A DNA stretch of 64,000 nt from a virus, in the IMG/VR virus record IMGVR_UViG_3300025652_000049, positions 1 through 64,000 of that record; one strand, given 5' to 3'. The stretch's first letter is position 1; each line of letters opens with the position of its first letter. The notes beneath the pieces are model-generated. The model made no database searches. It had not been told where the DNA came from and saw only the letters and a program-made list of their open reading frames with translations. The position numbers were made by a program, and so were the translations under genes. Below, piece after piece: positions 43,535 to 63,427 of this stretch.

Positions 43535-43775
43535 TGTGAATTTTTGTTGCGTTAATACTTCTTTTTATAACACTATGAAAATGCTTTCCTTTACTTTCGG
43601 ATTCATAGAAATTATCATAATCTTCTTGAGTTGATGGACTGTATCTATAAATACTTCCATTACCAAATCTAATATATATTGCTTTTCCTGAAGCAGTATG
43701 TCCAATCTCTTTAATTTGAGAACTTGCAACTTCCTCTGTTTGCAAGTCCTCTTCTTTTGCGTAGCTACTTATCAT
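43527..43775 (-). CDS. KTSC-domain protein
   Basis: SSQIKEIGH...IRFGNGSIYRY...SESKGKHFH..IK. Confidence 0.85.
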   Translation of the reverse strand: MISSYAKEEDLQTEEVASSQIKEIGHTASGKAIYIRFGNGSIYRYSPSTQEDYDNFYESESKGKHFHSVIKRSINATKIHNG

Positions 43776-45430
43776 CCGAACATTGGATTAGGACTCGTAG
43801 TTTTACTGTAAACCGATGGGTCAATTATTACACACTCTGTTGTCAATAGCATTCCAGAAATAGAACCTGCGTTTTGCAAAGCTACTCGCGTAACCTTTAC
43901 TGGATCTATAATTCCTTGTTTAATCATACTCTCAACAAAGACACCAGCTCTAGCATCATAACCATGTTCCCAATTATTTTGACAATTGTCAAAATCTTCT
44001 AAATCTATTTCTTCAACTCCTACATTACTTATTATCTGATTAAATGGAGATTTAATAGCTTCCATCACAATATCAATACCAGCCTGTAAAGATGGATTAT
44101 TGTTTCTTGTTTCAATTTCCATCTTGCTTAATGATAGCAAAGCCGTTCCACCACCGGGAATAATACCTTCCTGAACAGCGTTCTTAGTCGCGTGCAAAGC
44201 ATCGTTAATCCTATGCTGCTTTTCTAGAAACTCTGTGTCTGAATAAGCACCAAGATTTATATAAGCTACACCATCAGTAAGCCTAGAGATACGCATATGT
44301 AATATGTTTTTCTCATAAGGAGTTGTTACAGTTTTTATTTTTTCTCGTAAAGAATCTGCTCTTTCTTCCATTTGCTTACGAACCTTCGCTCTGTATTCTT
44401 TTGTTCCAGCTACGCCTTTAATGGAAGTATATTGTAAACCAACACTAATGCCTTTTGCTTTTGGTAAAGAAGCCATTACATCCTCTTTAGCAAGACTATT
44501 AAACTGAACACCTTCTTCTTTAAGAAACGGAGCTTTGCCAAGGGCAGAACCTATATCTCTAAGAGTATGCATTTGCTCATCACCGAAGTCTGGAGCTACA
44601 CACACGCATACTTTAAAGTTTGCCTTTGCGACATTAGTAACTAACATTGACAATACAACATCATCGATTTTAGGAACTACAATAAGTAAATTAGCCGTTT
44701 CTTCATTAACAGTTTCTAACAAATGATTGAAGTTCTCACTTACATCTGTAAGAGGCTCATTACTAAGATACACATAGGTTTCGTCAAACTCACAAGTCTC
44801 GTTCTTCATGTCTGTCATAAAGTAAGGAGAAGCTAACCCCATTGGTAAGTTCATTCCTTGAATTGTAGTCAAATACGTTTCATATGTTCTAGATCGTTTG
44901 ATGTTTACGATACCTTGCTTTCCAGCAGCTTCGTAAGCTTGAATAACTAAATCTGCAATTTCCTCATCGTTATTAGAAGATATCAAAGCAACTTGCTTTA
45001 ACATTTTTGGAGAATCTTTAACCGAAATAGATTTTGACTCTAAGGCATCTACAATTAATGAAATACACTTATCAATACCTCTTTTAACTTCTAAGCGGTT
45101 GAGGTTTTTATCTAAGTTAACTCCAGCTTTGAAAATAGCTGCGGCCAAAACTGTTGCAGTCGTGGTACCATCTCCTGCTAGTTCATCAGATTTGTTGGCA
45201 ACATCCTGAACCGATTCTATAGCAACCATCTCAATAGGTACGTCAGAGAAAACTTCTCTAGCAACTGTTACTCCATCCTTAACCGAGAAAGGACGAGCCT
45301 CACCTTTTACCCTAATCAGAACATTAGATCCGCTTGGACCCAATGTAACCTTTACCGCTTTTTCAATTTGTTCAAGACCCGAAAGCAATCCTTTACGAGC
45401 CTCATCACCATATATAATATTTTTGTTCAT
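43772..45430 (-). CDS. groL: Chaperonin GroEL (group I)
   Basis: VKVTLGPSG.NV, KDGVTVARE, AGDGTTTATV, APDFGD, EGIIPGGG, IIDPVKVTR.AL.NA. Confidence 0.96.
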   Translation of the reverse strand: MNKNIIYGDEARKGLLSGLEQIEKAVKVTLGPSGSNVLIRVKGEARPFSVKDGVTVAREVFSDVPIEMVAIESVQDVANKSDELAGDGTTTATVLAAAIFKAGVNLDKNLNRLEVKRGIDKCISLIVDALESKSISVKDSPKMLKQVALISSNNDEEIADLVIQAYEAAGKQGIVNIKRSRTYETYLTTIQGMNLPMGLASPYFMTDMKNETCEFDETYVYLSNEPLTDVSENFNHLLETVNEETANLLIVVPKIDDVVLSMLVTNVAKANFKVCVCVAPDFGDEQMHTLRDIGSALGKAPFLKEEGVQFNSLAKEDVMASLPKAKGISVGLQYTSIKGVAGTKEYRAKVRKQMEERADSLREKIKTVTTPYEKNILHMRISRLTDGVAYINLGAYSDTEFLEKQHRINDALHATKNAVQEGIIPGGGTALLSLSKMEIETRNNNPSLQAGIDIVMEAIKSPFNQIISNVGVEEIDLEDFDNCQNNWEHGYDARAGVFVESMIKQGIIDPVKVTRVALQNAGSISGMLLTTECVIIDPSVYSKTTSPNPMFG

Positions 45431-46499: not shown

Positions 46500-46522
46500 A
46501 AAATATTATTTATAATTTTTAA

Positions 46523-46554
46523 CAAATCTACGCCTATTAGACGTAATCCGCAAA
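46523..46554 (-). promoter_or_regulatory. Bacteroidota sigma70 promoter (TTTG-N20-TAGATTTG) containing palindromic operator TACGCC-N5-GACGTA
   Basis: -33 and -7 elements with canonical spacing upstream of the GroES-like gene. Confidence 0.7.
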
Positions 46555-46766
46555 CTTTTATAATAGTACATCCATACATCCCCTTTTCCTCCACATACAT
46601 CATAACCTATTATAATAAAAAACCACCTGCCGAAACAGGTGGAAAAAGTATTGAGTTAATTAAAACTACATTCATTATAGCAAGTGCAAGATACAAAAAA
46701 AAGCCTAACACGAATGCAAGGCTTTAAATTCAAATATTTAGATATCCATTATGTCCTTAGACGCAC

Positions 46767-47120
46767 CTAATTATAAACCGAGCGAAAGCTCGACAATCTA
46801 TTGGGGAGGGTTTCTAATGGTGGCTTCTCGATAATGCTTATGTAATTATATTTATAACGACTCCTTCGAAACAAGTCTGGGCCCATATACGAGGGAACAA
46901 AAAACGTGCGATCAATACGATTAATCTTTTCTAAGGTAGAAGCACTTGTTATCTGATAATCAAAACTCTCTGTTTGATTAAGGACAACTGCATCCGGTGA
47001 AACTGAATCAACGAATGATACTAGCTCAATGCCAACATCATCATCTAATAGCTTAGGAACCTCTGCCGAAGCAATGGAAAACGTAAAAGCCATTAGGAGT
47101 ACTACAAGGAAATTTTTCAT
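46767..47120 (-). CDS. Secreted hypothetical protein (Sec signal peptide)
   Basis: MKNFLVVLLMAFTFSIASA signal peptide from ATG 47120; flanked by terminator-like hairpins (~46620-46650, ~46700-46726, ~47166-47196). Confidence 0.6.
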   Translation of the reverse strand: MKNFLVVLLMAFTFSIASAEVPKLLDDDVGIELVSFVDSVSPDAVVLNQTESFDYQITSASTLEKINRIDRTFFVPSYMGPDLFRRSRYKYNYISIIEKPPLETLPNRLSSFRSVYN

Positions 47121-47261
47121 TGTATTTCTGTATTTAATGATTAATAAAGTATAAATATATAAAAAAAATGCTTCCCTACTACAAGAAGCATTTTTCATAT
47201 CAACTAATTAACTAAAAAACATACCAACCAAATATGTCTTATGAAAACATAAATATACAAC

Positions 47262-47465
47262 TTATTTCGGAACTGTATAATCAAGGATAATATGAACCAT
47301 AGCCTCAAATTTAAAATTGTCAGCAATCTCACTCGCGCTATTTTTGTGAAAAGTAGGATATAAAAAAATATTGCAGTACCCATGAATCTCAGCACCATCC
47401 ATACCCTTATCTATCATACGAGCAATAATATCATCATTCCAATATGGCGTCTTACACCTACTCAT
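47262..47465 (-). CDS. Hypothetical protein
   Basis: 67-aa ORF followed by a terminator hairpin. Confidence 0.45.
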   Translation of the reverse strand: MSRCKTPYWNDDIIARMIDKGMDGAEIHGYCNIFLYPTFHKNSASEIADNFKFEAMVHIILDYTVPK

Positions 47466-47587
47466 ATTTCTTATTCTTTAATCTGAAACATTCCTCAGTA
47501 AAACCTCGCATCAATAAACGATTCCGAATACGCCTCTCTAAACATAATTCTACCATAACACCACTATTTATATTAATATCTATTAAG

Positions 47588-47610
47588 CAAAACTACGTCA
47601 AATAGACGTA
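47588..47610 (-). promoter_or_regulatory. -7 element TAGTTTTG with perfect palindrome TACGTC-N5-GACGTA
   Basis: Same arrangement as at 46523-46545; first leftward promoter at the strand switch. Confidence 0.6.
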
Positions 47611-47677
47611 ACAAAAAAACCAAACATAAAATAAAAAATTTCCAAAATTTATTCGCTCGTTTGCTTAATAGTAAAAT

Positions 47678-47713
47678 TCCCCCTACCATAATCTTGTTTA
47701 TGGGGTAGGGGGG
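47678..47713. repeat. GC-rich inverted repeat at the strand-switch point
   Basis: CCCCCTACC-ATAA...TTAT-GG-GGTAGGGG. Confidence 0.7.
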
Positions 47714-47722
47714 TCTCTATTA

Positions 47723-47738
47723 AAAACTCATAAAAGAG
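47723..47738 (+). promoter_or_regulatory. Repeated early motif AAAACTCATAAAAGAG, copy 1
   Basis: Recurs at 48198, 50541, 53971 and 56274. Confidence 0.7.
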
Positions 47739-47781
47739 AGTCCTAATCGTTAGTGTCTCTTTATAATTTAATTTATTTACT

Positions 47782-47940
47782 ATGTCTTATTTATCATCAC
47801 TTCGTACCAAAGTATCGACCCTTAATGCACAACCTGTGCCTAACTCTTACACCAAGCTTGACATCTTTCGTGTTAAAGCTACAGTTGTTGCTGGCTTTAC
47901 TGTGGGGTATATTCAAGGATCATTAACTAAAACTAAATAG
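47782..47940 (+). CDS. Small early protein, 52 aa (not in ORF track)
   Basis: MSYLSSLRTKVSTLNAQPVPNSYTKLDIFRVKATVVAGFTVGYIQGSLTKTK; AT-rich leader; ends 4 nt before the next ATG. Confidence 0.6.
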   Translation: MSYLSSLRTKVSTLNAQPVPNSYTKLDIFRVKATVVAGFTVGYIQGSLTKTK

Positions 47941-47944
47941 ACTC

Positions 47945-48199
47945 ATGGCTATCAAGAAATCTACTACCATTGCATCAGCTGTCGCTGCTGCTGGAACTAC
48001 TGCATCCATCTGGCATGCCTCTACTGCCACTACTATGGCTGTCACATCTACTGCTGGCGCTACCGCCGGCTCAGGCACAATGGTCTTTAAGACTGTTGCC
48101 GCAGGCTTGGGCTCCAAGCTTCTCATCGGTGCTTTATGCATCGGTGCTACTGCTGCCGTCACCTACATGGTTTACACTCACCTAGAGAGTAAATCATAA
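47945..48199 (+). CDS. Ala/Thr/Gly-rich small membrane protein
   Basis: 84 aa with a hydrophobic C-terminal helix. Confidence 0.65.
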   Translation: MAIKKSTTIASAVAAAGTTASIWHASTATTMAVTSTAGATAGSGTMVFKTVAAGLGSKLLIGALCIGATAAVTYMVYTHLESKS

Positions 48200-48212
48200 A
48201 CTCATAAAAGAG
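48198..48212 (+). promoter_or_regulatory. Repeated early motif, copy 2
   Basis: AAACTCATAAAAGAG overlapping the stop codon. Confidence 0.65.
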
Positions 48213-48224
48213 AACTTTTGTTCA

Positions 48225-48265
48225 TCCTCTTGCTCATCCTCTTGGATAGGCAAGGGGCTTTTTCT
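48225..48265 (+). terminator. Terminator-like hairpin
   Basis: CCTCTTGC...GCAAGGGG followed by CTTTTTCT. Confidence 0.55.
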
Positions 48266-48269
48266 AATT

Positions 48270-48318
48270 CTGTCGTGTAGTATGTGCTACACCTGATGAG
48301 GTTGTTAGACCGAAACAG
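48270..48318 (+). ncRNA. Type III hammerhead ribozyme
   Basis: CUGUC (GUC cleavage triplet, cut after 48274) - stem I GUGUAG/CUACAC - CUGAUGA - stem II GGUU(GUUA)GACC - GAAA - CAG closing stem III. Confidence 0.88.
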
Positions 48319-48337
48319 TTACTTAATACTTATTCTA

Positions 48338-48613
48338 ATGGTACATTCCTTCTCATCCGACTATAAGAACGGCAACATCACTATCACCTTCACCGATGGT
48401 GATGAGGTTAAGACGATCTTCTTTGTTAATAGCACTGTCGCATACGACATCGCTTATAACACACTTCAATGGCGATATGATATGTCTGGTTACACAGAAT
48501 ATCAAGGAGACTCTGGCTACTTAAAAGCCATCACACACATGCGCAAATGTGGTCTCTCATTCATGAAGCATCCACAAGATTGCGACATGTTTATTCCCCA
48601 CTATAAAGCATGA
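48338..48613 (+). CDS. Hypothetical early protein (91 aa)
   Basis: ATG 48338 just downstream of the ribozyme; the ORF-track start at 48284 lies inside the ribozyme. Confidence 0.65.
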   Translation: MVHSFSSDYKNGNITITFTDGDEVKTIFFVNSTVAYDIAYNTLQWRYDMSGYTEYQGDSGYLKAITHMRKCGLSFMKHPQDCDMFIPHYKA

Positions 48614-48652
48614 CATCATGTCAATTTATAGCCTTCAAACTACATCTGTAGA

Positions 48653-48714
48653 GTAAGCGAGATCTGTTTACCCAAATCTATTAATCTATTTTGGGTAAGC
48701 AGGATCTGTTTACC
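48653..48714 (+). repeat. Two copies of 20-nt GTAAGCRRGATCTGTTTACC hairpin motif
   Basis: Copies at 48653-48672 and 48695-48714; third copy at 52297-52316. Confidence 0.75.
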
Positions 48715-49180
48715 GCCCGATTACGATGATGCCAATGTTTACAGGGCTTCACACGTTTTACCTAAAAAAGTCGTATAGTATATACTATATATACCGACGG
48801 ACTAGGACGTGGCAGAGACTGACAGAGTGTGCTCAATCAGTATGTGTCCTCTTAGTCTAACTTGGTAAACCACTGCGGTTCTCTGCGGTGTTATACTAAT
48901 GTTATCTGTCTTATTATAAGCTGTCATTGTTTGTTATTAAAAAGGCGTAGTTATGTGCCTACTATGGTGCATTACTATTTTGTTATTTATAAACATCTTT
49001 TACTTTATTAACGTAGTGATTGCTTGCGGTCACTATGTTGATTTATTTAAGTTACTGCGGTAGTTTACTATCGCTTCGTCTTCGTTCGGTGCTACGCACC
49101 TCTCTCATCCTCGCTAGGGGATATTATTTAATTTATTATTTATTTATTTAAAATCATCTGATTCCAAGGATGTAAAATAC

Positions 49181-49477
49181 TTGGTCACTATTGTTATGAT
49201 ATCTATATCGCTTGATGATGTTGTTATTGCGAAGCAATCTGCTACTGGTTATGCACCTCTATGTATGGAGGTTGCTAACGTTGCAATATATCTTCATCGT
49301 GAGAGAACACATGGGTTCTCTAACTACTCTTTCAGGTTATGTCCTGACGACAACTGCTATTATGGTAAGATTCGAGGCTCTGTTCAAGGGCTTGAGCTTG
49401 CTATGGCAGATATTGAATTCTTTGGTATTTCTATCAAAGACTTCGACAGATACCTACGTCCTCTTTTAGACGACTAG
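49181..49477 (+). CDS. Hypothetical early protein
   Basis: 98-aa ORF, start uncertain. Confidence 0.55.
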   Translation: MVTIVMISISLDDVVIAKQSATGYAPLCMEVANVAIYLHRERTHGFSNYSFRLCPDDNCYYGKIRGSVQGLELAMADIEFFGISIKDFDRYLRPLLDD

Positions 49478-49484
49478 GTATCAA

Positions 49485-49534
49485 TGCATGTATGGTATGA
49501 TTACCTAGAGGTTCGATTCCTCTTCATGCAGCTA
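49485..49534 (+). ncRNA. tRNA-like mini-element (acceptor-like stem, one short hairpin, canonical T-arm)
   Basis: TGCATG/CATGCA stem, GGTA-TGAT-TACC hairpin, AGAGG-TTCGATT-CCTCT T-arm, then GCTA. Confidence 0.62.
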
Positions 49535-49576
49535 ACTTTAAATCTAAAAGGTTGTGACTTACCACACACATTTATT

Positions 49577-49948
49577 ATGAGAAAATTATCTTTATTACGT
49601 GAATCTCTTATGCAGTCTAAGACTGCTGCTACTTCTATGGAAACCTTCAACAACTTAAGGTTTACTAGTCTATCCTCTGCTTATGAACATAAGATTGTTG
49701 CTGACAAAATCAACTCAAACAATTACAAAACTATGCTTACTGCTAGTGGTATTGTTTGGGGTGCTGCTATTGGAACTTATGTTGCAGGCTCAACACTACT
49801 TGTTGCAGGCGCAGTATTAGCAGGAACTACTGTTGTTGGCACTGCTACTGCTCTTGCTGTTAACAACAGGCGTATTATTAAAAACTCTAATGAGTTTTTG
49901 AATAACGGAGATTACATTACTCCTGAGCCTATAACTATTAATCTTTAA
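49577..49948 (+). CDS. Early membrane protein with glycine-zipper-like helices
   Basis: Start MRKLS after ACATTTATT leader; GAAIG/AGAVLAG/VGTATA hydrophobic stretch. Confidence 0.65.
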   Translation: MRKLSLLRESLMQSKTAATSMETFNNLRFTSLSSAYEHKIVADKINSNNYKTMLTASGIVWGAAIGTYVAGSTLLVAGAVLAGTTVVGTATALAVNNRRIIKNSNEFLNNGDYITPEPITINL

Positions 49949-49958
49949 TCTATAAACT

Positions 49959-50114
49959 ATGTACAATCCTCGTCTTATTATCTCAGCTATGAGAACTTAT
50001 GGTTGCTCTGCTATTGAAGCTATTCAATGGCTTGGGCAACCTCATGAAAATGCATTCTTATTTACTAACGGCAATGTTCATATTCCAGAGTGCTGGAATA
50101 CTGATGCCATTTAA
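49959..50114 (+). CDS. Small early protein, 51 aa (not in ORF track)
   Basis: MYNPRLIISAMRTYGCSAIEAIQWLGQPHENAFLFTNGNVHIPECWNTDAI; fills the gap between neighbours, TAAACT leader. Confidence 0.6.
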   Translation: MYNPRLIISAMRTYGCSAIEAIQWLGQPHENAFLFTNGNVHIPECWNTDAI

Positions 50115-50126
50115 AACCTATCTATT

Positions 50127-50369
50127 ATGGATTCTTATTTCCTTGCACAGTTATTACGTCTAAAGATACACCTAATCACTATCAATGATTGTGATGATGT
50201 TGTTGCCTACTATACTGAAAAGTTTGTCAATACTGATAAACACGTCTTCATTTATACTCATGGGTACTTCAGTACCAATTCTAATAGTTGGGTTAATAAA
50301 ACCCATATCGTCACCTCCAGTGAGGATCTTGAGTATCACCTAAAGAACTTTGGTAAATCTTTTTACTAA
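50127..50369 (+). CDS. Hypothetical early protein
   Basis: 80-aa ORF in the operon. Confidence 0.6.
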   Translation: MDSYFLAQLLRLKIHLITINDCDDVVAYYTEKFVNTDKHVFIYTHGYFSTNSNSWVNKTHIVTSSEDLEYHLKNFGKSFY

Positions 50370-50383
50370 AAACTATATAAACT

Positions 50384-50551
50384 ATGAATTATAATATTCC
50401 TGTTATTGAATTAGACCTATCCATTCGGCTTCTCAATGTGTTAAAGCGTAATGGTATATTCTTTTTGTCTGACATTAAAAACATCGATAATGTTAAATGG
50501 CTTGACAAACGTACCAAAGATGAGCTATTGTTAGCTCTCAAAAACTCATAA
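50384..50551 (+). CDS. RNA polymerase alpha-CTD-like miniprotein, 55 aa (not in ORF track)
   Basis: PVIELDLSIRLLNVLKRNGIFFLSDI...WLDKRTKDELLLAL resembles alpha-CTD (LELTVRSANCLKAEAI..IGDL...LGKKSLTEIKDVL). Confidence 0.65.
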   Translation: MNYNIPVIELDLSIRLLNVLKRNGIFFLSDIKNIDNVKWLDKRTKDELLLALKNS

Positions 50552-50556
50552 AAGAG
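50541..50556 (+). promoter_or_regulatory. Repeated early motif, copy 3
   Basis: AAAACTCATAAAAGAG, identical to copy 1. Confidence 0.7.
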
Positions 50557-50559
50557 TAC

Positions 50560-50629
50560 CACGTATTAAAGAGTTTCTTGCGTGTCTAAATAACGAAGCC
50601 TCTTAACCCTAGCCCTCTTTTGGGGGCTA
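50560..50629 (+). ncRNA. Candidate H-type pseudoknot plus hairpin in a 5' leader
   Basis: CACGTA/TGCGTG stem; its loop AAGAGTTTC can pair with GAAG-C-CTCTT; AAATA linker; TAGCCCTC-TTTT-GGGGGCTA hairpin. Confidence 0.45.
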
Positions 50630-50674
50630 ACATTGCGCGATGTCAAGCGCATTATAAGTGTGACCACATTTATT

Positions 50675-51004
50675 ATGAAAGCACCTGCTTTTAAATCAAT
50701 CCTAGCTACGGCTATTGGGTATGCCTCTGGCGATGCCCACATTATTGTTCAATCAATGGCTGACGGTATCGTTCGCTTTGAGTCTAAGCTTGTTAACAAG
50801 CTGACCAAAGAATCACGTCACGACATTGAAAAACAACGTCATCAGCACACAGTTGAGACACAAGAGCTTGTTAAAGCCACTACTGCTAGAGCTGTAGGCT
50901 TTATCGGAGCGATATTCAAAGCTTCTACTAAACCATTAGTTAGTGGTGAGAATATAAATTTCGAGGAAGGACAAACCATTTATGCTCCTGAATCAAATGC
51001 GTAA
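50675..51004 (+). CDS. Hypothetical early protein
   Basis: Start MKAPAF after ACATTTATT leader. Confidence 0.6.
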   Translation: MKAPAFKSILATAIGYASGDAHIIVQSMADGIVRFESKLVNKLTKESRHDIEKQRHQHTVETQELVKATTARAVGFIGAIFKASTKPLVSGENINFEEGQTIYAPESNA

Positions 51005-51377
51005 CTCTCACAAGGGAGCTATATTATTTATAGCCATCTGTATATTGGCATTCCTAATTGGCAGTTATATCTTAACTGCTACATTCTTTGGAGTGCTAAT
51101 ATTAGTTGGTTTAATAGTGCTCATCGAAAGCATCCCACCTTTACGGTGGTTGATGGCAAAGACCTCAAGAGTCGTAGACATATGCATCTTTGTATTCTCC
51201 ATTATAGCAATGGCATCTTATGGCTTAAACATCACCGCTGCGCTTACCGTAGCTGGTGTTGGTTACACATTGATATATGCACCCCATTTAAGGGAGCAGA
51301 GTATCATTAATAAAAACAAAACTAACCGATCCGCAGCGGCCGGTTATAAATCTAAATTTAATCACAATCCAAAATAA
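50997..51377 (+). CDS. Multi-pass membrane protein (about 4 TM)
   Basis: Long hydrophobic segments. Confidence 0.7.
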   Translation: MRNSHKGAILFIAICILAFLIGSYILTATFFGVLILVGLIVLIESIPPLRWLMAKTSRVVDICIFVFSIIAMASYGLNITAALTVAGVGYTLIYAPHLREQSIINKNKTNRSAAAGYKSKFNHNPK

Positions 51378-51385
51378 GTATTATT

Positions 51386-51721
51386 ATGAGAACTAAATTC
51401 GTACCAGTTACATTAGTAACATCTTCGGACCAGCAAGACGCTATAATGTCTTCAACATTTCCAATCTTCAGCTCTAATGAGTTTAAAGAAACAAGATCTT
51501 CTGTCTTAGAATTCTTAGACTCATGTGTCTATATCACTAGACCTATGAGCATACCTAACCAGTATTCTAAATTTATCAATCGATACTTTCCTGTCTCTGA
51601 AGCAGGAGTAGAATCACTGATAAAGTTTCGTAAGCATAACCGTCAATCGATTAAGCAACGAAACAAAGGCGCTGTTAAAGCGCAAGCTATGTTTGTTCGT
51701 GATATAAAACAAACAGCTTAA
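51386..51721 (+). CDS. Hypothetical protein
   Basis: 111-aa ORF. Confidence 0.6.
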   Translation: MRTKFVPVTLVTSSDQQDAIMSSTFPIFSSNEFKETRSSVLEFLDSCVYITRPMSIPNQYSKFINRYFPVSEAGVESLIKFRKHNRQSIKQRNKGAVKAQAMFVRDIKQTA

Positions 51722-51763
51722 AAACAACAAAGCCCAGTTCTACAGAGAGCTGGGCTTGTTTTC
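51722..51763. terminator. Bidirectional intrinsic terminator
   Basis: AAGCCCAGTTCT/AGAGCTGGGCTT stem with A and T tracts on either side. Confidence 0.75.
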
Positions 51764-51845
51764 ATATATGAAGATAATGTCAATAACCTAAAATATATGA
51801 ACACTACAAATATATGCTATTTATACTTACGAGTTATAACTAGTA

Positions 51846-52250
51846 CTAAAATTCTTTGTGTGTCCATCTACCTAATGGTACATGATATTTACATTCTTTT
51901 TTAAGATTATCCATATCAGGCTTTCCAATGTAATGCATTGCCCAAGGTAGTACTACAAAGTATCTAACCGCATCAATGGTATATTCATTCATAAAGCCAA
52001 TACCTATTAACTTGTTTTTGTCTCGGTGAAATGACTGCTTGTGTTTATAATTATAACTCAAGTAGTCGCCGGGCAAGAACATCTTTTCTACCGTATGACC
52101 TTGCTTTGGTCTACGGTTCCAGACATCCCTCAACAGCTTGTTAGAAGTGGCTGATAGTTGATACATATTATCAATCAATTCATCACTGATAACTCGTGCG
52201 TACTTACTACTGTATTCTTTGAGAAGGGTTCGGACTATTTGTTGTTTCAT
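51846..52250 (-). CDS. Hypothetical protein, lone reverse-oriented gene
   Basis: 134 aa; own TATATTTG -7 element at 52278-52285. Confidence 0.65.
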   Translation of the reverse strand: MKQQIVRTLLKEYSSKYARVISDELIDNMYQLSATSNKLLRDVWNRRPKQGHTVEKMFLPGDYLSYNYKHKQSFHRDKNKLIGIGFMNEYTIDAVRYFVVLPWAMHYIGKPDMDNLKKECKYHVPLGRWTHKEF

Positions 52251-52296
52251 ATTGCTTATTCTAAGTTATTGACACTACAAATATATATAATTCTCG

Positions 52297-52316
52297 GTAA
52301 GCAAGATCTGTTTACC
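52297..52316 (+). repeat. Third copy of GTAAGCRRGATCTGTTTACC motif
   Basis: GTAAGCAAGATCTGTTTACC upstream of gene 52355. Confidence 0.75.
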
Positions 52317-52354
52317 GTACTACATTTATTAATTAATTATTTAATACATTTATT

Positions 52355-52780
52355 ATGAGAAATTTAAGCTTAATGATTGTCGGATTTAAAATAACTAGCT
52401 ATGTATCATCAACACGTAAAGCTAATGTTAGCGTGGTCTTCGGAGAAGAAGGAGACTTGAAGCGTAAGCTATTCAAGAACATGACCATTAGTGGTCTATT
52501 GCGTTCACGTCTGGATAGACAAACGCAAGGATATGAGGTAGGCACTCAATATTTATCTGTAAACAATAGTACAGATTGGAAAGAGAATCCTTTTCAACTA
52601 ATTCGCTATGGTTCTAAAGAATCTCCTGAGTACATGCTTGACTGCGTAGATAAACGCAACAGCAGTAAGAAGGTATCTCAAAGCCCTATCGATGGTAGTA
52701 ATGTTATTACCTATAAGAACAGATGGCACAAGCCAGAGTTTTACTTACGTTACAGAGATAATACTAAAGCTACTGTATAA
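52355..52780 (+). CDS. Hypothetical protein
   Basis: 141-aa ORF. Confidence 0.65.
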   Translation: MRNLSLMIVGFKITSYVSSTRKANVSVVFGEEGDLKRKLFKNMTISGLLRSRLDRQTQGYEVGTQYLSVNNSTDWKENPFQLIRYGSKESPEYMLDCVDKRNSSKKVSQSPIDGSNVITYKNRWHKPEFYLRYRDNTKATV

Positions 52781-52895
52781 TGAAGCATCTAAATAAGACC
52801 GAAAAGGTCTACATAGCCAGCATCGTAGTTATATCTACGGTGCTTGTCGCTGTATGCGCATACAAAATCATTATTCATAATCTAAACATACTCTA

Positions 52896-53408
52896 ATGGC
52901 AAAGCCACTATACCGAATACTAAGTCCTGATGGTTTTGATATTTATCAAAACAAGCTATATCTTAAGTCTGAGATTAACGATGCTTATCAAAAATGGAGC
53001 GATGGCTTCAAACATCAAGGCTATTATAGTTTATTAAGAACTAAAATACCACTTGACAAACTCAAAGACTATTGTATAATAAATAAAACAAGAGCCAAGC
53101 GTTACAAATCTAAAGAGATTTTGAAGCTTGATGATTTGTATGAACTACAAGACTCATTCTGTAGTTCTGGTATTACATTCCAATACAGGTTAACTGCCGG
53201 TGAACTTAAATGGGCAAGACATATTAATGGTAAATACCTTATTGCTGATTTTGTTTTCGAAAATATTGACGAAAACAACATACTTACTTTCTGGGATCCT
53301 GAAGAACTTAAACAAGTTATCGAGGACGATGGCATGCCTCCGAAAGCTGTAATGCTTTCTGATGATACGGCTTTACAGAAATTATTCTTTTGGTTATCGA
53401 ACAATTAA
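52896..53408 (+). CDS. Hypothetical protein
   Basis: 170-aa ORF; LSPDGF...QGYYS N-terminal module. Confidence 0.65.
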   Translation: MAKPLYRILSPDGFDIYQNKLYLKSEINDAYQKWSDGFKHQGYYSLLRTKIPLDKLKDYCIINKTRAKRYKSKEILKLDDLYELQDSFCSSGITFQYRLTAGELKWARHINGKYLIADFVFENIDENNILTFWDPEELKQVIEDDGMPPKAVMLSDDTALQKLFFWLSNN

Positions 53409-53419
53409 ATCTTAAACTT

Positions 53420-53752
53420 ATGGAAACTCTATCAATTGTTTTGACAATACTTTACATTTTAATGAACCTCATCTATATGATTAAAAGCCACAGGTTTTTA
53501 GGTTGTATTTATGGAAAATACAATTCACCCATACATATTCTTTCATTTGTTCTTATATTAGCATACTTCTATGTGATTGTGTTTCGAACAGATTGGTATT
53601 TGTATAATATCATTAGCATTTTAATAGGAGCTCTAATAGGTGCCTGGGCTACATTCTTTGCGAAGCGATTCATAAAACATAACGATCTTGTAGAAAATGC
53701 TTATAAGAATTATACTCATATTAAAAAAGATGATAATGAAATTAACAGCTAG
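53420..53752 (+). CDS. Membrane protein (3 TM)
   Basis: Hydrophobic helices; start METLS. Confidence 0.65.
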   Translation: METLSIVLTILYILMNLIYMIKSHRFLGCIYGKYNSPIHILSFVLILAYFYVIVFRTDWYLYNIISILIGALIGAWATFFAKRFIKHNDLVENAYKNYTHIKKDDNEINS

Positions 53753-53981
53753 GCAAATAATAACCAGCAAGGTCTTACATATCAACGGAACTAATCGCAC
53801 ATATTCAATGACTCCAGAAGGTCAAGTTTATAATCGTTTTACCAAAAAGATTCTCAAAGAGCTTGAGCATTCTTCTGGTAGTGGAAACAAATACGTTTCT
53901 ATTCGAATAGCAAAAGATAAAACTAGCTTCAAGGTTTATATTGATAAATGGCGTAATGAATTGTTTCCTAAAAACTCATAA
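53736..53981 (+). CDS. NUMOD4-like small DNA-binding protein
   Basis: YSMTPEGQVYN...KILK....GNKYVSI pattern; no HNH domain. Confidence 0.5.
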   Translation: MKLTARQIITSKVLHINGTNRTYSMTPEGQVYNRFTKKILKELEHSSGSGNKYVSIRIAKDKTSFKVYIDKWRNELFPKNS

Positions 53982-53985
53982 AATG
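53971..53985 (+). promoter_or_regulatory. Repeated early motif, copy 4
   Basis: AAAACTCATAAAATG. Confidence 0.6.
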
Positions 53986-54146
53986 AAATACATGCATTCT
54001 AAAGCCCTAACTATAGGCAAAAGGATACTAGGGTATCTTTTAACGTCAGGATGGTTTATAATAGCCATCTACTGGATGTCGAGAGCATATATCTGTTAAG
54101 ATATATTCCTTATCTTTGAATATATTAATATATAAATCTATTCAAA

Positions 54147-54518
54147 ATGAGTGCATCTGCAAGAAAAGATTACGGAGCTGGAGCCGTAATCGACCCTTCA
54201 CAAGAAACGGTGAAGCGTATTAACAACATGAATAACCCATATAGTGTTCAGCAACTAGGGTTAGACAAAAGTGATGATAACGGAGCATCGCCTAAATACA
54301 TCGCGATTACATCCGAATCATTAGATGCTTTAACAGCTAACACCAGAGTATTACTTGGTAACCGAGAGGGAGTTGTTAAAAGCGTAAATACACCAGTGGC
54401 AACGCTAGTGGATTGTGTTATCACTATTCGTGATAAAGAAAAAGTTGATATTGACACAACCTACACAAAGGCTGAACTGTTGGCATCACCAATTATATTC
54501 TTTGCGACGAACGCATAG
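54147..54518 (+). CDS. Hypothetical protein in a stand-alone transcription unit
   Basis: TATCTTTG -7 element at 54111-54118; terminator at 54541-54568. Confidence 0.65.
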   Translation: MSASARKDYGAGAVIDPSQETVKRINNMNNPYSVQQLGLDKSDDNGASPKYIAITSESLDALTANTRVLLGNREGVVKSVNTPVATLVDCVITIRDKEKVDIDTTYTKAELLASPIIFFATNA

Positions 54519-54540
54519 AATACATTTTAACTTATGAATT

Positions 54541-54568
54541 AAGCTACCATTCTTTGGTGGCTTTTTTT
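54541..54568 (+). terminator. Intrinsic terminator
   Basis: AAGCTACCA-TTCTT-TGGTGGCTT followed by a T tract. Confidence 0.7.
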
Positions 54569-54586
54569 ATGCAATAAATTATAGCA

Positions 54587-55129
54587 ATGAGTCAAACAAT
54601 TAAAAAGTTAGATCTTCTCAATGAGAAGACAACAGTAGACAACTACCCTTACGGTAGAAAACAATGCGAAATGACATTCGCAGTTGAGCATAAAACAGGT
54701 AAAGGATTTCGTACTTGGAGACAATCCAAGAACCCTACAACTGGTAGATTAAACAAACCAAAGCTTAGTACATACTACAGTTTCTTGGCAATGTATATGA
54801 ATGAAGATAATCACGTAAAATATTACGCGAATAATATTCGAGGTATTGATGATGTTAAAAATCTACAGCAATGGCTTAAAGTACACGCTGATCAGATTAA
54901 TTTAACAGACGAAGAATCACAAACCTTATGGTGTACCATTGTAGCATCGTATAAAATTAGCATGGCTTGGTTCGACTGCAAGGAGGGATTTACTATTAAA
55001 GATGCACTAGAGGCTTCCCCAATCAAAGACCTCATCACTTGCTACGGTTCTCATGCACCTATCCAACAATTAATTGATGTAGAACTAGACCGACCTGAAA
55101 TGGAGGCTATGCGTAAAACTAAATCGTAA
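54587..55129 (+). CDS. Hypothetical protein
   Basis: 180 aa; VDNYPYG...E...GKGFR...NP.TGR.NKPK.STY motif. Confidence 0.65.
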   Translation: MSQTIKKLDLLNEKTTVDNYPYGRKQCEMTFAVEHKTGKGFRTWRQSKNPTTGRLNKPKLSTYYSFLAMYMNEDNHVKYYANNIRGIDDVKNLQQWLKVHADQINLTDEESQTLWCTIVASYKISMAWFDCKEGFTIKDALEASPIKDLITCYGSHAPIQQLIDVELDRPEMEAMRKTKS

Positions 55130-55130
55130 A

Positions 55131-55637
55131 ATGAAAAACCTCATAATAGTTTTATTGTTTACTTGCATGCAAGTAATGCAATCACAGAATGCTGTTGGTT
55201 TTAGCGCAAGCTTAGACAACAAGCTGACATTCCTAGAAGACAATCATGGCAATATGCCATTTACTCTTGACTTATCTACAAAGATGTCGCTACAAGGGTA
55301 TCAGAAAAAGCTAGGTTACTTACAAATTGCTATTAAATATGAATATGCAGATTTGTCTAGTGGAGACTTCCATAGATATGCAGCAGAAGTAGGATACGTA
55401 TTTACCAATGGAGCATTAGGATTAATGCCTTCGGTTGGTTACGGATTTATAGGGCGCGAAAATAGAGGCTCTACTCAATCTTGGGAGTTTGGTATAATGC
55501 CATCGTTCTTAATAATCCCTAACTTAAAGCTTATTGTTGGATTTGTTTGGACAGAGAGAACAGACCTTCTAGGTCAATACAGATTTAATATTAACACAGG
55601 CTTACAATTTGATATAGCCTTAAAAGACTACAGATAA
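55131..55637 (+). CDS. Outer-membrane beta-barrel-like protein
   Basis: Signal peptide ending SQ; about eight amphipathic beta-strands with aromatic girdles (EVGYVF, SVGYGF, NTGLQF). Confidence 0.6.
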   Translation: MKNLIIVLLFTCMQVMQSQNAVGFSASLDNKLTFLEDNHGNMPFTLDLSTKMSLQGYQKKLGYLQIAIKYEYADLSSGDFHRYAAEVGYVFTNGALGLMPSVGYGFIGRENRGSTQSWEFGIMPSFLIIPNLKLIVGFVWTERTDLLGQYRFNINTGLQFDIALKDYR

Positions 55638-55639
55638 CT

Positions 55640-55969
55640 ATGGACAATTTAATATTTATATTAATAGCAATAATATCATTCGCGTTAGGCTTTACAGTAG
55701 CCTCAAGAATGATGAGAGAAAGAATGGAAGAATCTATTGATGCTTTAGACGATTACTATCTTAAGGAAAACCAGAGCTTGATCAGTAAGCTCCATAAAAT
55801 GAGATTGAGAAGAAATGAAATAGTATCATTTGTAGACAGCAGTGAGTTTGCTGACCTGCTCCATAAGTTTCGACATGGAGACAGGGCTAACATTAAACAA
55901 AATGCTGACAGATTCAGAGCATTAAAAATATCATTAATTTCTAAACTAAACGATTATAATGAGAACTGA
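55640..55969 (+). CDS. Single-TM hypothetical protein
   Basis: N-terminal TM. Confidence 0.6.
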   Translation: MDNLIFILIAIISFALGFTVASRMMRERMEESIDALDDYYLKENQSLISKLHKMRLRRNEIVSFVDSSEFADLLHKFRHGDRANIKQNADRFRALKISLISKLNDYNEN

Positions 55970-56609
55970 AACGATAGTGATATACGAGTTTCATGAGCTT
56001 GACATACCTGTTCAACAAAGTCTTGTTGATAAAGTTGAGGTATCCACTGAGTTTATATATCAAGACGCAGAAGAAACTGTCAAATCTTTTTGTAAAGCAT
56101 TTGACGTTAAAACACACATAAACAATTGGCTTCAATTTGCTTGTTGGAATCCTTATCTAGATCACGAATATGAACAAGAAGTTTGTGAGCTTACAGGTAT
56201 GCGATTAAGAACATATCTAATTAATAACTATGGACATGTTTTGTACAAAGGTAAATACTATGGTAACCTTTCTAAAACTCATAAAAATGGAACTCCTATA
56301 CTTGTATGTAAAGCACATCCGGCTGGAATGAGACATATCAAAAGATATTCAAAAGTTATTTTTGAAAGAGATTGTAGTTTAACTGGAGTTTGTTATGACA
56401 TTTCTATAATGAAACCAATTTATAATTTCATTGACAACCCTAATGAAGTTGATACTATCGATGTATTATTTGACAATTGCTTCACTTCACTTGAAATAGA
56501 CATTAAAGGTCAAGAAGATTATTATCATACAGATGATGCTAAAGCGGAGCAAGTAGAGATTAACGATAACGAATATTTAAAAGATGGAACAATATGGATA
56601 AACGAATAG
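55959..56609 (+). CDS. Hypothetical protein
   Basis: 216 aa; IYEFHEL...CSLTGVCYD...EYLKDG. Confidence 0.65.
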   Translation: MRTETIVIYEFHELDIPVQQSLVDKVEVSTEFIYQDAEETVKSFCKAFDVKTHINNWLQFACWNPYLDHEYEQEVCELTGMRLRTYLINNYGHVLYKGKYYGNLSKTHKNGTPILVCKAHPAGMRHIKRYSKVIFERDCSLTGVCYDISIMKPIYNFIDNPNEVDTIDVLFDNCFTSLEIDIKGQEDYYHTDDAKAEQVEINDNEYLKDGTIWINE

Positions 56610-57265
56610 TAAATTTTCTAGGATTTAATTGCATAGTACAAATAGGTGCTTATGGCAATGGTAGAATGGCAATATCATTGGTGTCTAAAAAAGACCATGA
56701 ACCAGTGGCTACAGCAACAGTAAACTTGCCGGCCGAACCTATTATGGGAGGTCATGTTTTCATTAAAGATTATTCTGAAAACAAAGGAATGCTTGATGCA
56801 TTAGTTAGTGCTGGTATTGTTATTTTTGACGAGCATGACCAGCATGCAATTGATACAACAGGACGAAGTGACATGGCTTGGATGGTAAAATATGTACCAC
56901 CAGGACAAATACCTAAACCACCTAAAGCAGAATCAATTCCAAGTCCTGAAACCTTTTTAAAGACATTAGGTTTTAAACCATATATAAATGCTTTTCCTGA
57001 TACACATCAATGGAAAGTTCATGATAATTATATGGACAATGAGTTTTGGATTGTACATGATATTGAGATTCTAATGAAAATAGCATATACTGATTCAACT
57101 AGAAAGGATCAACAAGCATTTGCTAATCTTGTTTCTAATATGCCCAACCTAATTGCATGCACAGAAATATTGCATGACATACAATATGTTGGTGCCGAGA
57201 AAGAAAACTTAGTGGGCCTAATGGTTAGAAACTTTCTAATAGAACTGGGTACTATTAAAAAATGA
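56594..57265 (+). CDS. DUF4313-like N-terminal domain protein
   Basis: YGNGRMAI.L....EP.ATATVNL...FIKDYSEN.G.LD.L..AGI. Confidence 0.5.
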   Translation: MDKRIVNFLGFNCIVQIGAYGNGRMAISLVSKKDHEPVATATVNLPAEPIMGGHVFIKDYSENKGMLDALVSAGIVIFDEHDQHAIDTTGRSDMAWMVKYVPPGQIPKPPKAESIPSPETFLKTLGFKPYINAFPDTHQWKVHDNYMDNEFWIVHDIEILMKIAYTDSTRKDQQAFANLVSNMPNLIACTEILHDIQYVGAEKENLVGLMVRNFLIELGTIKK

Positions 57266-57278
57266 TAAAATATGAAGA

Positions 57279-59813
57279 ATGACACTTAATTTTACAGATG
57301 ATACTGTATATAACTATGAACCTGGGAGCATTGACAACATACGTCGTATGCTCCCTAAGTTATATGAGGAACAAGTTGAAGATGTTCTTAGAGCTGAAAA
57401 CAGATACCTATCAGGTGGAAAAGGATATCTGTTCACAAATGGAACAGGTACCGGAAAAACCTATGTAGGTCTTGGTGTAGCTAAGAGATTTTGGGCTCAA
57501 AACAAAAGAGATATATTGATTGTTGTTCCAACAGAACAGAAGTGTATTGACTGGATTTCAGAAGGTAGTGTTTTAAACCTTACGATATCTATGCTCAAAG
57601 ACACAAACGACGGAGGTAGTTTGTTTTGCGTAACTACTTATGCAAACTTCTACCAGAACGATGCATTGATTATGAGAAATTTTGATTTAATAATATATGA
57701 CGAATCTCATTATTTGAATCAGAACCAACAAGGCAAAGAGACAAGCTACCTATCTAAACACAAGTTAATATCAAAGCTACCATCTGCTTGCAAGGAGTTA
57801 GCAAAGGGTGTTATTTCAGAATACCCGCAGTTTAATGATGGTGATGATTATGAAACTTGGAGATGGCAATTAGATGCTTGGAACAAACAGCTTACTCACC
57901 ATACTGTTAGTCTGGTTGGTAGTACTAAGGTTTTGTTTCTATCAGCAACTCCTTTTGCTTATCACAAGTCTATTAAATATGCTGATGGTTGTTTGTTTGA
58001 TATAAACGAAACCATTAACGAAGGTTATAAGGATCATCCTTCATACAATGAGCCAGTAGGCTTTGACAATTTCCTTGTACAAAACTTTGGATATCGTATG
58101 CGTTACAATAAAGTGACCATACCCGAAAGTGGTGTAGATGTAAATCTTTTAGAACGACAGTTCTTTGAGAAACATAGAGAAATGGGTGTAATGTCTACAA
58201 GAGTTTTAAAGCTTGATGTAGATTATTCTAGAGATTTCATAACCGTAGAAAGTGAGATAGGAACTTTCATTAATAGTGGTATGGAACTTTTTCATCATTC
58301 AGATTTCAGAGAGAAATATAAATACTTATCTGAAGTTGCAAGTAAAAAATACAATTACTTGTATGTGAATCAACTTTTAGAAGCTGTTAAAGCTCAAGAA
58401 GTAATTCCACGAATTCAATCTCATTTAAACTTAGGAAGGAAAGTTGTTATATTTCATGGATATAATAACTCCGTAGTATCACACCCATTTCATTTCGATT
58501 TAGACAAGCTTCTTACATCTGACACTGAATGGATGTTTTCTTTGATTACCAAAGAGATTGCTCGTTTCAATATGGAATATCCTGAATATGTAAATCTTGA
58601 CTTATCTAGGTTAGGAAACACCAGAGAAGTTATCTCTAGTGCATTTTATAATATGAAGCAATACAATGGTACTGTTTCTAAAAAGAAACGGAAAGATTAC
58701 ATAATTGACTTTAATCATGGAGAAACCTATTCTATTCTAGTACAAACTAGAGCAGGTAGAGAAGGTATATCACTACATGATACTGTTGGTGATAAACAGC
58801 GTGTTCTTATCAATCTAGGGCTTCCAGTCGCTCCTACCGAAGCTATTCAAACCGAAGGTAGAATATACAGAAGTGGAAGCAAGAGCGATGCTATCTATGA
58901 ATACATAACGCTTCAAACTAATTTTGAGCGATATGCATTTGCAACCAAGATAGCAGAGAGGTCACGTACTGCCGAAAACCTAGCTATGGGTAACTTAGCT
59001 AGGGATTTACATACTGGCTTTACCGAGGGTTACTTAAACTCTCACTATGAACCTCCTACCTTAGACCAAGGTAAAGGCGGTAAAGAATCAGATAGGCAGT
59101 TGCTAGACATTACAGATTTCGATAGAGCAAAAACATATTATTTTGCTAAAGGAAAGAAAACATCTAGTAATAAGTCTAGAGAAGGTACAGATTACTATGC
59201 GACTCCTGAGCCATTAGGATATAAGATGGCAGAGTGGTTAGATATTAAAGCTGACAAACGAGCATTAGAACCTAGTGCTGGTCATGGTGCAATCGCGAGA
59301 TGGTTTCCTGAACACTGTAACAATACATTTATTGAACCTAGTTATGACTTACAATCACAATTAGTTATCAATTCAGGAAAAGCAAGAGTTATTCAAGACA
59401 GTTTTGAGAACTTTAATAATCATAACAAGTTTGAGTACATAGCAATGAATCCTCCTTTTGGACAAGCTGGTAAAACAGCTATGGAGCATATTGACAAAGC
59501 TGTTACTATGCATATGTTTCGATATAGTCAAGAAGGATCTAAGTTGCTTGCTATCGTGCCTCAAGGTAATTCAATGCAAAAGAGATTAGATGCTTTTTAT
59601 GAAAGCGTTCTCTTTGATGATTTCATAATGACAGGTGAAATTATATTACCTAGTTGCACATTCTCTAGAGCAGGAACTAATGTACATTGTAAAATAATAC
59701 GAATAGTACATAAAAATACTCCTGGTGCAACATACAATCTAAAGTCAAAGGATTTTAGTTACTGTAAAGACATCGGAGAATTCTTCGATGAAATAGAACA
59801 TTTTAATTTTTAG
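57279..59813 (+). CDS. SF2 (strawberry-notch-like) helicase fused to C-terminal N6-adenine DNA methyltransferase
   Basis: TGTGKT, DESH, SAT, GREGISL, QTEGRIYR; then YYATP, LEPSAGHGAI, MNPPF. Confidence 0.85.
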   Translation: MTLNFTDDTVYNYEPGSIDNIRRMLPKLYEEQVEDVLRAENRYLSGGKGYLFTNGTGTGKTYVGLGVAKRFWAQNKRDILIVVPTEQKCIDWISEGSVLNLTISMLKDTNDGGSLFCVTTYANFYQNDALIMRNFDLIIYDESHYLNQNQQGKETSYLSKHKLISKLPSACKELAKGVISEYPQFNDGDDYETWRWQLDAWNKQLTHHTVSLVGSTKVLFLSATPFAYHKSIKYADGCLFDINETINEGYKDHPSYNEPVGFDNFLVQNFGYRMRYNKVTIPESGVDVNLLERQFFEKHREMGVMSTRVLKLDVDYSRDFITVESEIGTFINSGMELFHHSDFREKYKYLSEVASKKYNYLYVNQLLEAVKAQEVIPRIQSHLNLGRKVVIFHGYNNSVVSHPFHFDLDKLLTSDTEWMFSLITKEIARFNMEYPEYVNLDLSRLGNTREVISSAFYNMKQYNGTVSKKKRKDYIIDFNHGETYSILVQTRAGREGISLHDTVGDKQRVLINLGLPVAPTEAIQTEGRIYRSGSKSDAIYEYITLQTNFERYAFATKIAERSRTAENLAMGNLARDLHTGFTEGYLNSHYEPPTLDQGKGGKESDRQLLDITDFDRAKTYYFAKGKKTSSNKSREGTDYYATPEPLGYKMAEWLDIKADKRALEPSAGHGAIARWFPEHCNNTFIEPSYDLQSQLVINSGKARVIQDSFENFNNHNKFEYIAMNPPFGQAGKTAMEHIDKAVTMHMFRYSQEGSKLLAIVPQGNSMQKRLDAFYESVLFDDFIMTGEIILPSCTFSRAGTNVHCKIIRIVHKNTPGATYNLKSKDFSYCKDIGEFFDEIEHFNF

Positions 59814-59818
59814 AAATT

Positions 59819-60058
59819 ATGGCAAATACATTGAATAGTAGAGAATCTATAAAAGGATTTGATTTTGAATATAGTAAAGAACATAACTTCTACGAGTGTA
59901 GAGGTGAAGTGATGTACGACGATGACCACGATCAAATGCCTGAACCAGCTCTTTGGAGAGCTGCTGGAATATTAATTGAAAGACTAAAAGAAAGAGGTAT
60001 CCAATCTCTTCGTAATCATTCTGAAAAAGGATGGGTAGAAGTTTTAATAAATGATTAG
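59819..60058 (+). CDS. Hypothetical protein
   Basis: 79-aa ORF. Confidence 0.6.
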   Translation: MANTLNSRESIKGFDFEYSKEHNFYECRGEVMYDDDHDQMPEPALWRAAGILIERLKERGIQSLRNHSEKGWVEVLIND

Positions 60059-60390: not shown

Positions 60391-60392
60391 TT

Positions 60393-60731: not shown

Positions 60732-60732
60732 C

Positions 60733-60957: not shown

Positions 60958-60967
60958 AATTATAACT

Positions 60968-61682: not shown

Positions 61683-61693
61683 TACAATTTATT

Positions 61694-63418: not shown

Positions 63419-63427
63419 TTATTAACT

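Follow-up and report, generated by a model that had tools for sequence, protein, structure and literature searches.

A compact type III hammerhead ribozyme upstream of a small gene in a phage distantly related to crAss-like phages

The phage and the locus

The DNA that we analysed, which we call the window, is a stretch of 64,000 nucleotides: the first 64 kb of IMG/VR virus record IMGVR_UViG_3300025652_000049. The record itself is 76,423 bp long, is estimated to be 94% complete and has a G+C content of about 35%. Large genes on the minus strand occupy positions 1 to 46.5 kb, among them those for the portal and the large terminase (TerL), both assigned through PHROGs, and for a GroEL-like chaperonin. 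From about 47.7 kb small genes run rightward on the plus strand, and then comes a helicase. At about 24% identity, the terminase resembles those of crAss-like phages, Cellulophaga phage phi14:2 and Flavobacterium phages, so we regard the phage as a distant relative of the crAss-like phages; its host is probably a Bacteroidota bacterium. A blastn search of INPHARED phages with positions 47700-48700 returned no match. An N4-like phage had been suspected from a giant open reading frame (ORF; 2-9439, minus strand, more than 3146 codons), an idea that we dropped, as the similarities of both TerL and portal point to the distant crAss-like, Flavobacterium and Cellulophaga phages.

Between two of the small rightward genes lies a 49-nt type III hammerhead. 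Its parts and its surroundings, together with the chaperonin gene on the opposite strand, are listed here in the numbering of the window.

43772-45430, minus strand: GroEL-like chaperonin (Pfam Cpn60_TCP1, E = 7e-47)
47945-48199, plus strand: upstream gene, 84 aa, rich in Ala, Thr and Gly, with a hydrophobic C-terminal segment
48198-48212, plus strand: second copy of the repeated motif AAACTCATAAAAGAG, overlapping the stop codon of the 84-aa gene; candidate promoter or regulatory signal
48226-48267, plus strand: upstream hairpin of 13 bp with one interior mismatch pair, followed by a U-rich tail, CUUUUUCUAA
48270-48273 with 48315-48318, plus strand: stem III, 4 bp, CUGU/ACAG
48274, plus strand: cleavage-site nucleotide C17; cut predicted, from alignment, between 48274 and 48275
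48275-48280 with 48287-48292, plus strand: stem I, 6 bp
48281-48286, plus strand: loop 1, UAUGUG
48293-48299, plus strand: core CUGAUGA
48300-48303 with 48308-48311, plus strand: stem II, 4 bp
48304-48307, plus strand: loop 2, GUUA
48312-48314, plus strand: GAA
48319-48337, plus strand: spacer of 19 nt, A/U-rich, presumed translation-initiation region
48338-48613, plus strand: downstream gene, 91 aa, from the list of ORFs; likely beneficiary of the predicted cleavage

A preliminary description of this DNA had put the ribozyme 20 nt upstream of an early gene. Upstream of a gene it certainly is, with 19 nt between its last nucleotide and ATG 48338; that the rightward arm is early is presumed from the layout of the genome. 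No frame of the 76-kb record contains the DFDxD motif, a hallmark of the virion RNA polymerase of crAss-like phages, nor does the giant ORF match any PHROG, so the early reading lacks the support that a virion polymerase might have lent it.

Neither of the flanking genes, the 84-aa one upstream and the 91-aa one downstream, has a match in Pfam or PHROGs. When the 91-aa protein was used in a search for homologous proteins it found itself alone, and neither it nor the chaperonin, as single queries against viral contigs, turned up related loci. The sole homologue of the 91-aa protein that we found is in locus L003, at 36% identity. The spacer ahead of the gene contains no Shine-Dalgarno sequence. 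The reading frame of the gene is also open upstream, right through the ribozyme, and includes both a GTG (48284) and, within the CUGAUGA core, an AUG in frame at 48296; gene callers may therefore annotate here a protein of 105-109 aa that overlaps the ribozyme. Similarity to the L003 homologue begins only near ATG 48338.

On the other side of the ribozyme the previous stop codon is 70 nt away. Within this interval a terminator-like signal is called, made up of a hairpin at 48238-48257 and the tail CUUUUUCUAA; in a fold of 146 nt the helix has its full 13 bp and spans 48226-48257. The hairpin ends 12 nt before the ribozyme, with the U-tract in between.

The hammerhead element

Read from the sequence, positions 48270-48318 of the plus strand hold a complete hammerhead of 49 nt, which as RNA consists of CUGUC, GUGUAG-UAUGUG-CUACAC, CUGAUGA, GGUU-GUUA-GACC, GAAA and CAG. 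The nucleotides by which a type III hammerhead core is recognised (C3-U4-G5-A6-N7-G8-A9, G12-A13-A14, the pair A15.1-U16.1, and at position 17 an H, which is to say not G) are all there, and the core is canonical throughout: C3 U4 G5 A6 U7 G8 A9, G12 A13 A14, A15.1-U16.1 (A48315 with U48273) and C17. The pairs that adjoin the core (G10.1-C11.1, G1.1-C2.1 and A15.1-U16.1) are intact, as indeed are all 14 pairs of the element, counting a G.U next to loop 2. Stem III is limited to 4 bp, since the oppositions beyond it are U.U, U.U and A.A. With stems I and II capped and stem III open, the element is of type III. The coordinates and features in the preliminary description (a type III hammerhead with complete core, three stems and a 4-bp stem III) are borne out by the sequence and by the covariance model R1 introduced below, and the cut that it placed after C48274, giving G48275 as the new 5' end, is the position that alignment predicts.

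Rfam's Hammerhead_3 family (RF00008), which had been proposed as a check on the motif, gives a divided answer. The model aligns with the element from end to end at 32.3 bits, and the match is significant: E = 1.4e-6 when the whole 76-kb record is searched with RF00008 alone, 1.4e-3 for the 17.5-kb arm (46500-64000) and 2.4e-5 for a 301-nt segment searched with all 4227 families. It nevertheless misses the gathering score of 48.5 bits, and at gathering scores Rfam finds nothing in the entire window. In Rfam scans by E-value, covering 46500-64000 and the last 12.4 kb of the record, no other ribozyme came to light, and a search for tRNA genes was also negative. We discarded a Flavi_CRE match (17.7 bits, E = 1) as noise.

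How readily might such a motif arise by accident? A loose type III descriptor, with the core fixed and stems of at least 4, 3 and 3 bp, matches 0.03 times per random 64-kb Markov-1 window and had no match across 987 kb of related phage DNA. Once the stems are required to be as long as those observed (at least 6, 4 and 4 bp), 400 random windows gave 0 matches. In a very large scan chance figures of this kind are not decisive alone, and so we sought relatives of the element.

A family of compact phage hammerheads

Viral contigs were searched with the pattern CTGTC-N14-22-CTGATGAG-N8-16-CGAAACAG, which fixes only stem III and the core. At least 119 contigs matched, against a chance expectation of a few (a rough figure from 21 fixed bases, 81 gap combinations and a collection assumed to hold about 1e11 bases). 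Since the window supplied the pattern, agreement at 21 of the 49 positions is built in; what window and family share independently of it is length, helix registers, pairing and loop motifs. Among the matches listed are 98 unique sequences (97 family members and the window's own), and 74 of 129 matches are 49 nt long, as in the window. The usual member among these matches has a 6-bp stem I, a loop 1 of UGUGUG, a stem II formed by G-C plus 3 bp, and a loop 2 of AAAA. Stem III is 4 bp long in 12 of the 98 unique sequences listed.

We aligned 49 unique members of 49 nt without gaps, the window excluded. In this alignment 99.9% of cells are paired, compared with about 40% in slid registers, and covariation is plain: all six pairs of stem I and two of stem II change on both sides, with 195 cells showing double-sided changes where shuffled alignments have 54.6 +/- 9. 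The covariance model built from these 49 members, R1 (again without the window), recognises the window's element over its full length at 56.7 bits, E = 3.2e-13. That is its only match in the 76-kb genome, the second-best score being 10.8 bits, and it falls in the middle of the 30-77 bits spanned by the family itself. When R1 was run over 100 family loci it returned 176 matches, many of them with different sequences in stem III. In A3, the wider alignment drawn from R1 matches, covariation extends to stem III, with U-A replaced by C-G in 16 rows, and in alignment A4 compensatory changes are found in all three stems.

The family also accounts for the behaviour of Rfam. All 12 of the 12 members tested score between 33 and 47 bits with RF00008, below the gathering score, so the window's sub-threshold score is no argument against the element. 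The gathering score leaves out a whole subfamily; the window has not been singled out.

Two further observations on these alignments and contigs may be recorded here. The pair 10.1-11.1, usually regarded as important, is unpaired in 23 of 121 distinct rows of A3 (columns 42 and 71). And in one unrelated viral contig (L087) a DUF805b RNA (RF02914; 3733-3765, plus strand, 42.7 bits against a gathering score of 35.6) lies some 530 nt downstream of a family hammerhead.

Could the window's motif nonetheless resemble the hammerhead consensus by accident and mean nothing biologically? Rfam places it below the gathering score, a very large scan is bound to yield some 32-bit matches, and the loose descriptor does have a random rate of 0.03 per window. 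Stems as good as these were seen in 0 of 400 random windows, however, and a model that had never seen the window finds it with E = 3e-13. The length, the loop motifs, the strand, the distance from the start codon, the preceding hairpin and the synteny with GroEL (the last four taken up below) all fit the family as well, and these features had no place in the preliminary description's criteria or in the search pattern. We consider a chance match very improbable.

Peripheral loops and the question of activity

In one respect the window's element is not a typical member. It departs from the main 49-nt family at four of seven near-invariant peripheral positions: G13A in loop 1, and C34U, A36U and A37U in or next to loop 2. 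The outcome is a loop pair of UAUGUG and GUUA in place of UGUGUG and AAAA. With four peripheral positions deviating, the contact between the two loops may be weaker, but the same states are found in a subfamily with GUUA in loop 2. A scan of viral contigs for this loop 2 uncovered independent hammerheads of type III that share the U-GUUA-G arrangement. One of them (L208) has the window's exact loop pair, UAUGUG and GUUA, and differs from it by compensatory changes in all three stems; a GUUA loop 2 also occurs in L203 and L205, on different stems. Judged by these sequences, the window's peripheral elements are a recurring natural variant.

These facts bear on a second alternative, namely that the element is a slow or inactive member of the family, a recently acquired or decaying copy whose loops would not support fast cleavage at cellular Mg2+ and which would have little effect on expression. 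It is the single copy in its genome and sporadic in its lineage (see below), loop 2 and one position of loop 1 are off the main consensus, stem III is minimal, and slow phage variants are on record in Perreault et al. (PMC3088659). Set against this, the catalytic core and the pairs beside it are perfect and all 14 pairs are intact; the placement relative to hairpin and start codon is retained; and three independent hammerheads (L208, L203 and L205) have the same variant of loop 2 on other stems. The recurrence of a loop pair on different stems argues that the variant is under selection. A slow or dead copy thus seems to us improbable, if less so than a chance match. We put at about 0.85 the probability that 48270-48318 is a genuine, self-cleaving member of the family that acts in mRNA processing, a judgement founded on sequence comparison.

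Placement in the family and the link to GroEL

The members of the family are not scattered at random among phage genes. Among 132 unique family contexts listed, 77% have an ORF of at least 40 codons starting with ATG no more than 40 nt downstream, compared with 19% of random same-strand positions; the spacing to the ORF start has its mode at 21-25 nt, and in the window it is 19 nt. A strong hairpin (one for which the preceding 40 nt have a folding energy of -8 kcal/mol or lower) precedes the ribozyme in 78% of the family contexts listed and 17% of random positions. The upstream helix of the family has a median length of 10 bp and no U-tract, and in 86 of 102 family cases listed the hairpin stands only 0-2 nt before the ribozyme, whereas the window's is 12 nt away and has a U-tract. 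The stop codon of a preceding same-strand ORF lies within 60 nt in 78% of the family contexts listed and within 100 nt in 89%.

The window therefore has the module of its family (a stop codon, a hairpin, the hammerhead, a short spacer and a start codon) with one difference, the U-tract and the 12-nt gap that goes with it. The preliminary description had the ribozyme sitting right after a terminator-like hairpin. Hairpin and U-tract are both present, and the hairpin looks to be more than a terminator, resembling as it does the recurrent pairing of hairpin and hammerhead. The hairpin at 48226-48257 is terminator-like, and probably serves also as a protective 3'-terminal hairpin on the upstream product of cleavage.

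Many loci have more than one copy. Among the multi-copy loci listed, all copies were on one strand in 37 of 37, and the number per locus rises to six (L166), with five in L111 and in L173 and four in L102 and in L152. In these five contigs the co-oriented hammerheads lie within a few kilobases, about one per gene junction, and most of them adjoin an upstream hairpin of about 10 bp.

A further regularity concerns the chaperonin. The window's hammerhead is 2.84 kb upstream of the start of groEL, on the opposite strand. In at least 22 family loci there is a gene for a GroEL-like protein that shares 31-40% identity with the window's, and wherever groEL and scored hammerheads occur together among the loci listed (19 of 19), the ribozymes lie 1.3-6.7 kb upstream of it and point away from it. 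This shared divergent layout suggests a broad group of phages with a common genome plan. The loci in question (L102, L152, L153, L179 and 15 others) are on contigs that look unrelated to one another.

Within the phage's own lineage the ribozyme is far less constant. Relatives by terminase are plentiful; the nearest, with TerL 72-83% identical, belong to other collections (Logan and ENA), and the 80 loci compared here are from viral contigs. Further contigs of this same phage exist as well, 8 with the identical TerL and 12 with the identical 91-aa protein. GroEL and two neighbours are syntenic across these loci; the small rightward genes are not conserved. R1 made one match in the 80 loci, L048:5323-5275 (minus strand), at 55.8 bits. 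This hammerhead has a GUA cleavage site and U.U in place of G-C at 10.1/11.1, and it sits in the equivalent arm between two small ORFs, some 1 kb away from the strand switch, with a different gene downstream. Scans of whole records gave the same picture, one complete TerL relative out of ten having a hammerhead (G005, which is L048) and nine having none. L003, with the homologue of the 91-aa gene, has no hammerhead before it; what precedes the gene there is a terminator, the motif AAATTCATAAAAGAG and a leader of 80 nt. With one in ten relatives carrying a copy and none in L003, the ribozyme is sporadic in this lineage, with repeated gain or loss, and belongs to no one gene.

Which RNA is cut?

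The rightward arm contains a repeated motif, AAACTCATAAAAGAG, in three exact copies on the plus strand (47724-47738, 48198-48212 and 50542-50556), with variants at 56275 and 53971; 0.66 matches with up to two mismatches would be expected by chance. The first copy directly follows the strand-switch hairpin, leaving 44 nt to the first rightward ORF, and the second, ahead of the ribozyme, is the one at the end of the 84-aa gene, whose stop codon it overlaps. In L003, at about 3181-3167 on the minus strand, AAATTCATAAAAGAGAGTCC follows a terminator and precedes the 91-aa homologue by some 80 nt. The motif is probably a promoter of this phage lineage, but it fits no promoter type known to us.

Were the copy at 48198-48212 a promoter, the ribozyme might have a humbler task, chiefly removing from the 91-aa mRNA a leader of some 60-75 nt (the triphosphate end and the hairpin), and not separating coding regions. 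In favour of this are the three exact coding-strand copies, of which the first lies past the strand-switch hairpin and ahead of the rightward ORFs, and the near-identical motif in L003, which comes directly behind a terminator with about 80 nt left to the homologous gene. Against it stands the family, in which 78% of the hammerheads listed are within 60 nt of an upstream same-strand stop codon, an indication that the cut falls between cistrons; and the early transcripts of phi14:2 have no common upstream motif. That trimming a leader is the ribozyme's main work in the window strikes us as possible but doubtful. Leader trimming and the splitting of an operon are in any case compatible and not exclusive. 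The alternative substrate would be a polycistronic RNA that starts at the first copy of the motif (47724) and reads through the hairpin and U-tract.

A proposed mechanism

Cleavage by a hammerhead leaves a 2',3'-cyclic phosphate on the upstream fragment and a 5'-OH on the downstream one. We propose that RNA from the rightward arm forms a three-helix junction at 48270-48318 and self-cleaves between C48274 and G48275. The upstream RNA would carry the 52-aa and 84-aa genes, or, should the motif at 48198 prove to be a promoter, be no more than a leader, and would end in its cyclic phosphate a few bases past the strong hairpin. Since the hammerhead is of type III, only 5 nt of it would stay behind on this fragment. 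The downstream RNA would begin with a 5'-OH at G48275 and retain the 44-nt body of the ribozyme (stem I, core and stem II), followed by 19 nt of spacer and the ATG that opens the 91-aa gene.

Each of these ends may have its use. The hairpin would shield the new 3' end from exonucleases, while the 5'-OH, together with a stem I at the very 5' terminus, would shield the downstream message from decay that depends on the 5' end, and the start region of the 91-aa gene would be freed from the sequence context upstream. The short stem III would favour release of the products. The net effect would be a message cut into defined units with protected ends and insulated translation starts. The three claims made in the preliminary description, that the RNA cleaves itself, that a 5'-OH would stabilise the downstream mRNA and that the latter would be uncoupled from the genes upstream, are consistent with the proposal of Perreault et al. 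2011 (PMC3088659).

We would go one step further, though in a speculative vein, to an idea that we hold to be rather unlikely as a whole. The hairpin (with its protected upstream 3' end), the ribozyme and a constrained spacer of about 19-30 nt may together be a fixed module that punctuates the messages of phage early operons, in which the ribozyme body retained at the 5'-OH would set translation initiation and mRNA lifetime downstream, and which would mark the arm divergent from the phage GroEL across a broad group of phages. If true, such punctuation may matter most in hosts whose initiation is not led by Shine-Dalgarno sequences, and it would give the widespread phage hammerheads a defined and testable job.

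Significance and relation to known systems

Hammerheads between phage genes have been known since 2011, when Perreault et al. (PMC3088659) described hammerheads in bacteria by the hundreds, many from prophages, and the window's copy adds one to thousands. The same authors found clusters of hammerheads flanking single genes, from which processing of long phage transcripts was proposed, and saw constructs of phage and prophage hammerheads cleave both in vitro and in vivo (PMC3088659). What phage hammerheads do was still an open question in a 2019 review (PMC6765202). In the literature we found no paper on hammerheads in crAss-like phages, and the text of Perreault et al. (PMC3088659) mentions neither an upstream hairpin nor a fixed spacing.

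The value of the present work lies more in the regular module and the arm linked to GroEL than in the window's copy alone. A regular layout, on an arm divergent from the phage GroEL, amounts to a concrete hypothesis for what phage hammerheads are for. There is a practical side too. A covarying subfamily lies below the Rfam gathering score, so standard annotation misses its members, and gene callers may run ORFs straight through such sub-threshold hammerheads.

The nearest known relatives are the phage and prophage hammerheads of Perreault et al. (RF00008, clan CL00010). They share with the window's element a canonical core and three-helix junction, an intergenic position and the coding strand, and they share the proposed role, the processing of long phage transcripts into gene-length mRNAs; clusters flanking single genes are found in the window's family as well. 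The window's copy and the 12 family members tested differ in scoring below the Rfam gathering score, and the window's differs further in being a single copy in a distantly crAss-like phage and in a regular layout (hairpin, ribozyme, spacer and ATG) on which the text of Perreault et al. is silent.

A closer parallel in position is HHphage of haloviruses HF1 and HF2 (PMC3088659), a hammerhead 13 nt before the start codon of an early-region gene, for which primer extension mapped a 5' end no more than 3 nt from where the RNA is cut. The window's copy precedes a presumably early gene by 19 nt. HHphage, a structural variant from an archaeal virus, needs very high Mg2+, whereas the window's element has a standard core and probably a Bacteroidota host.

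There is, finally, an engineered counterpart. Insulators of the RiboJ type place the hammerhead of satellite tobacco ringspot virus before a ribosome-binding site, with an extra hairpin downstream of the ribozyme. As proposed for the phage module, a hammerhead directly before the translation start removes the upstream context and leaves a structured 5'-OH end. The difference is in where the hairpin sits: in the natural module it is upstream, on the 5' product of cleavage.
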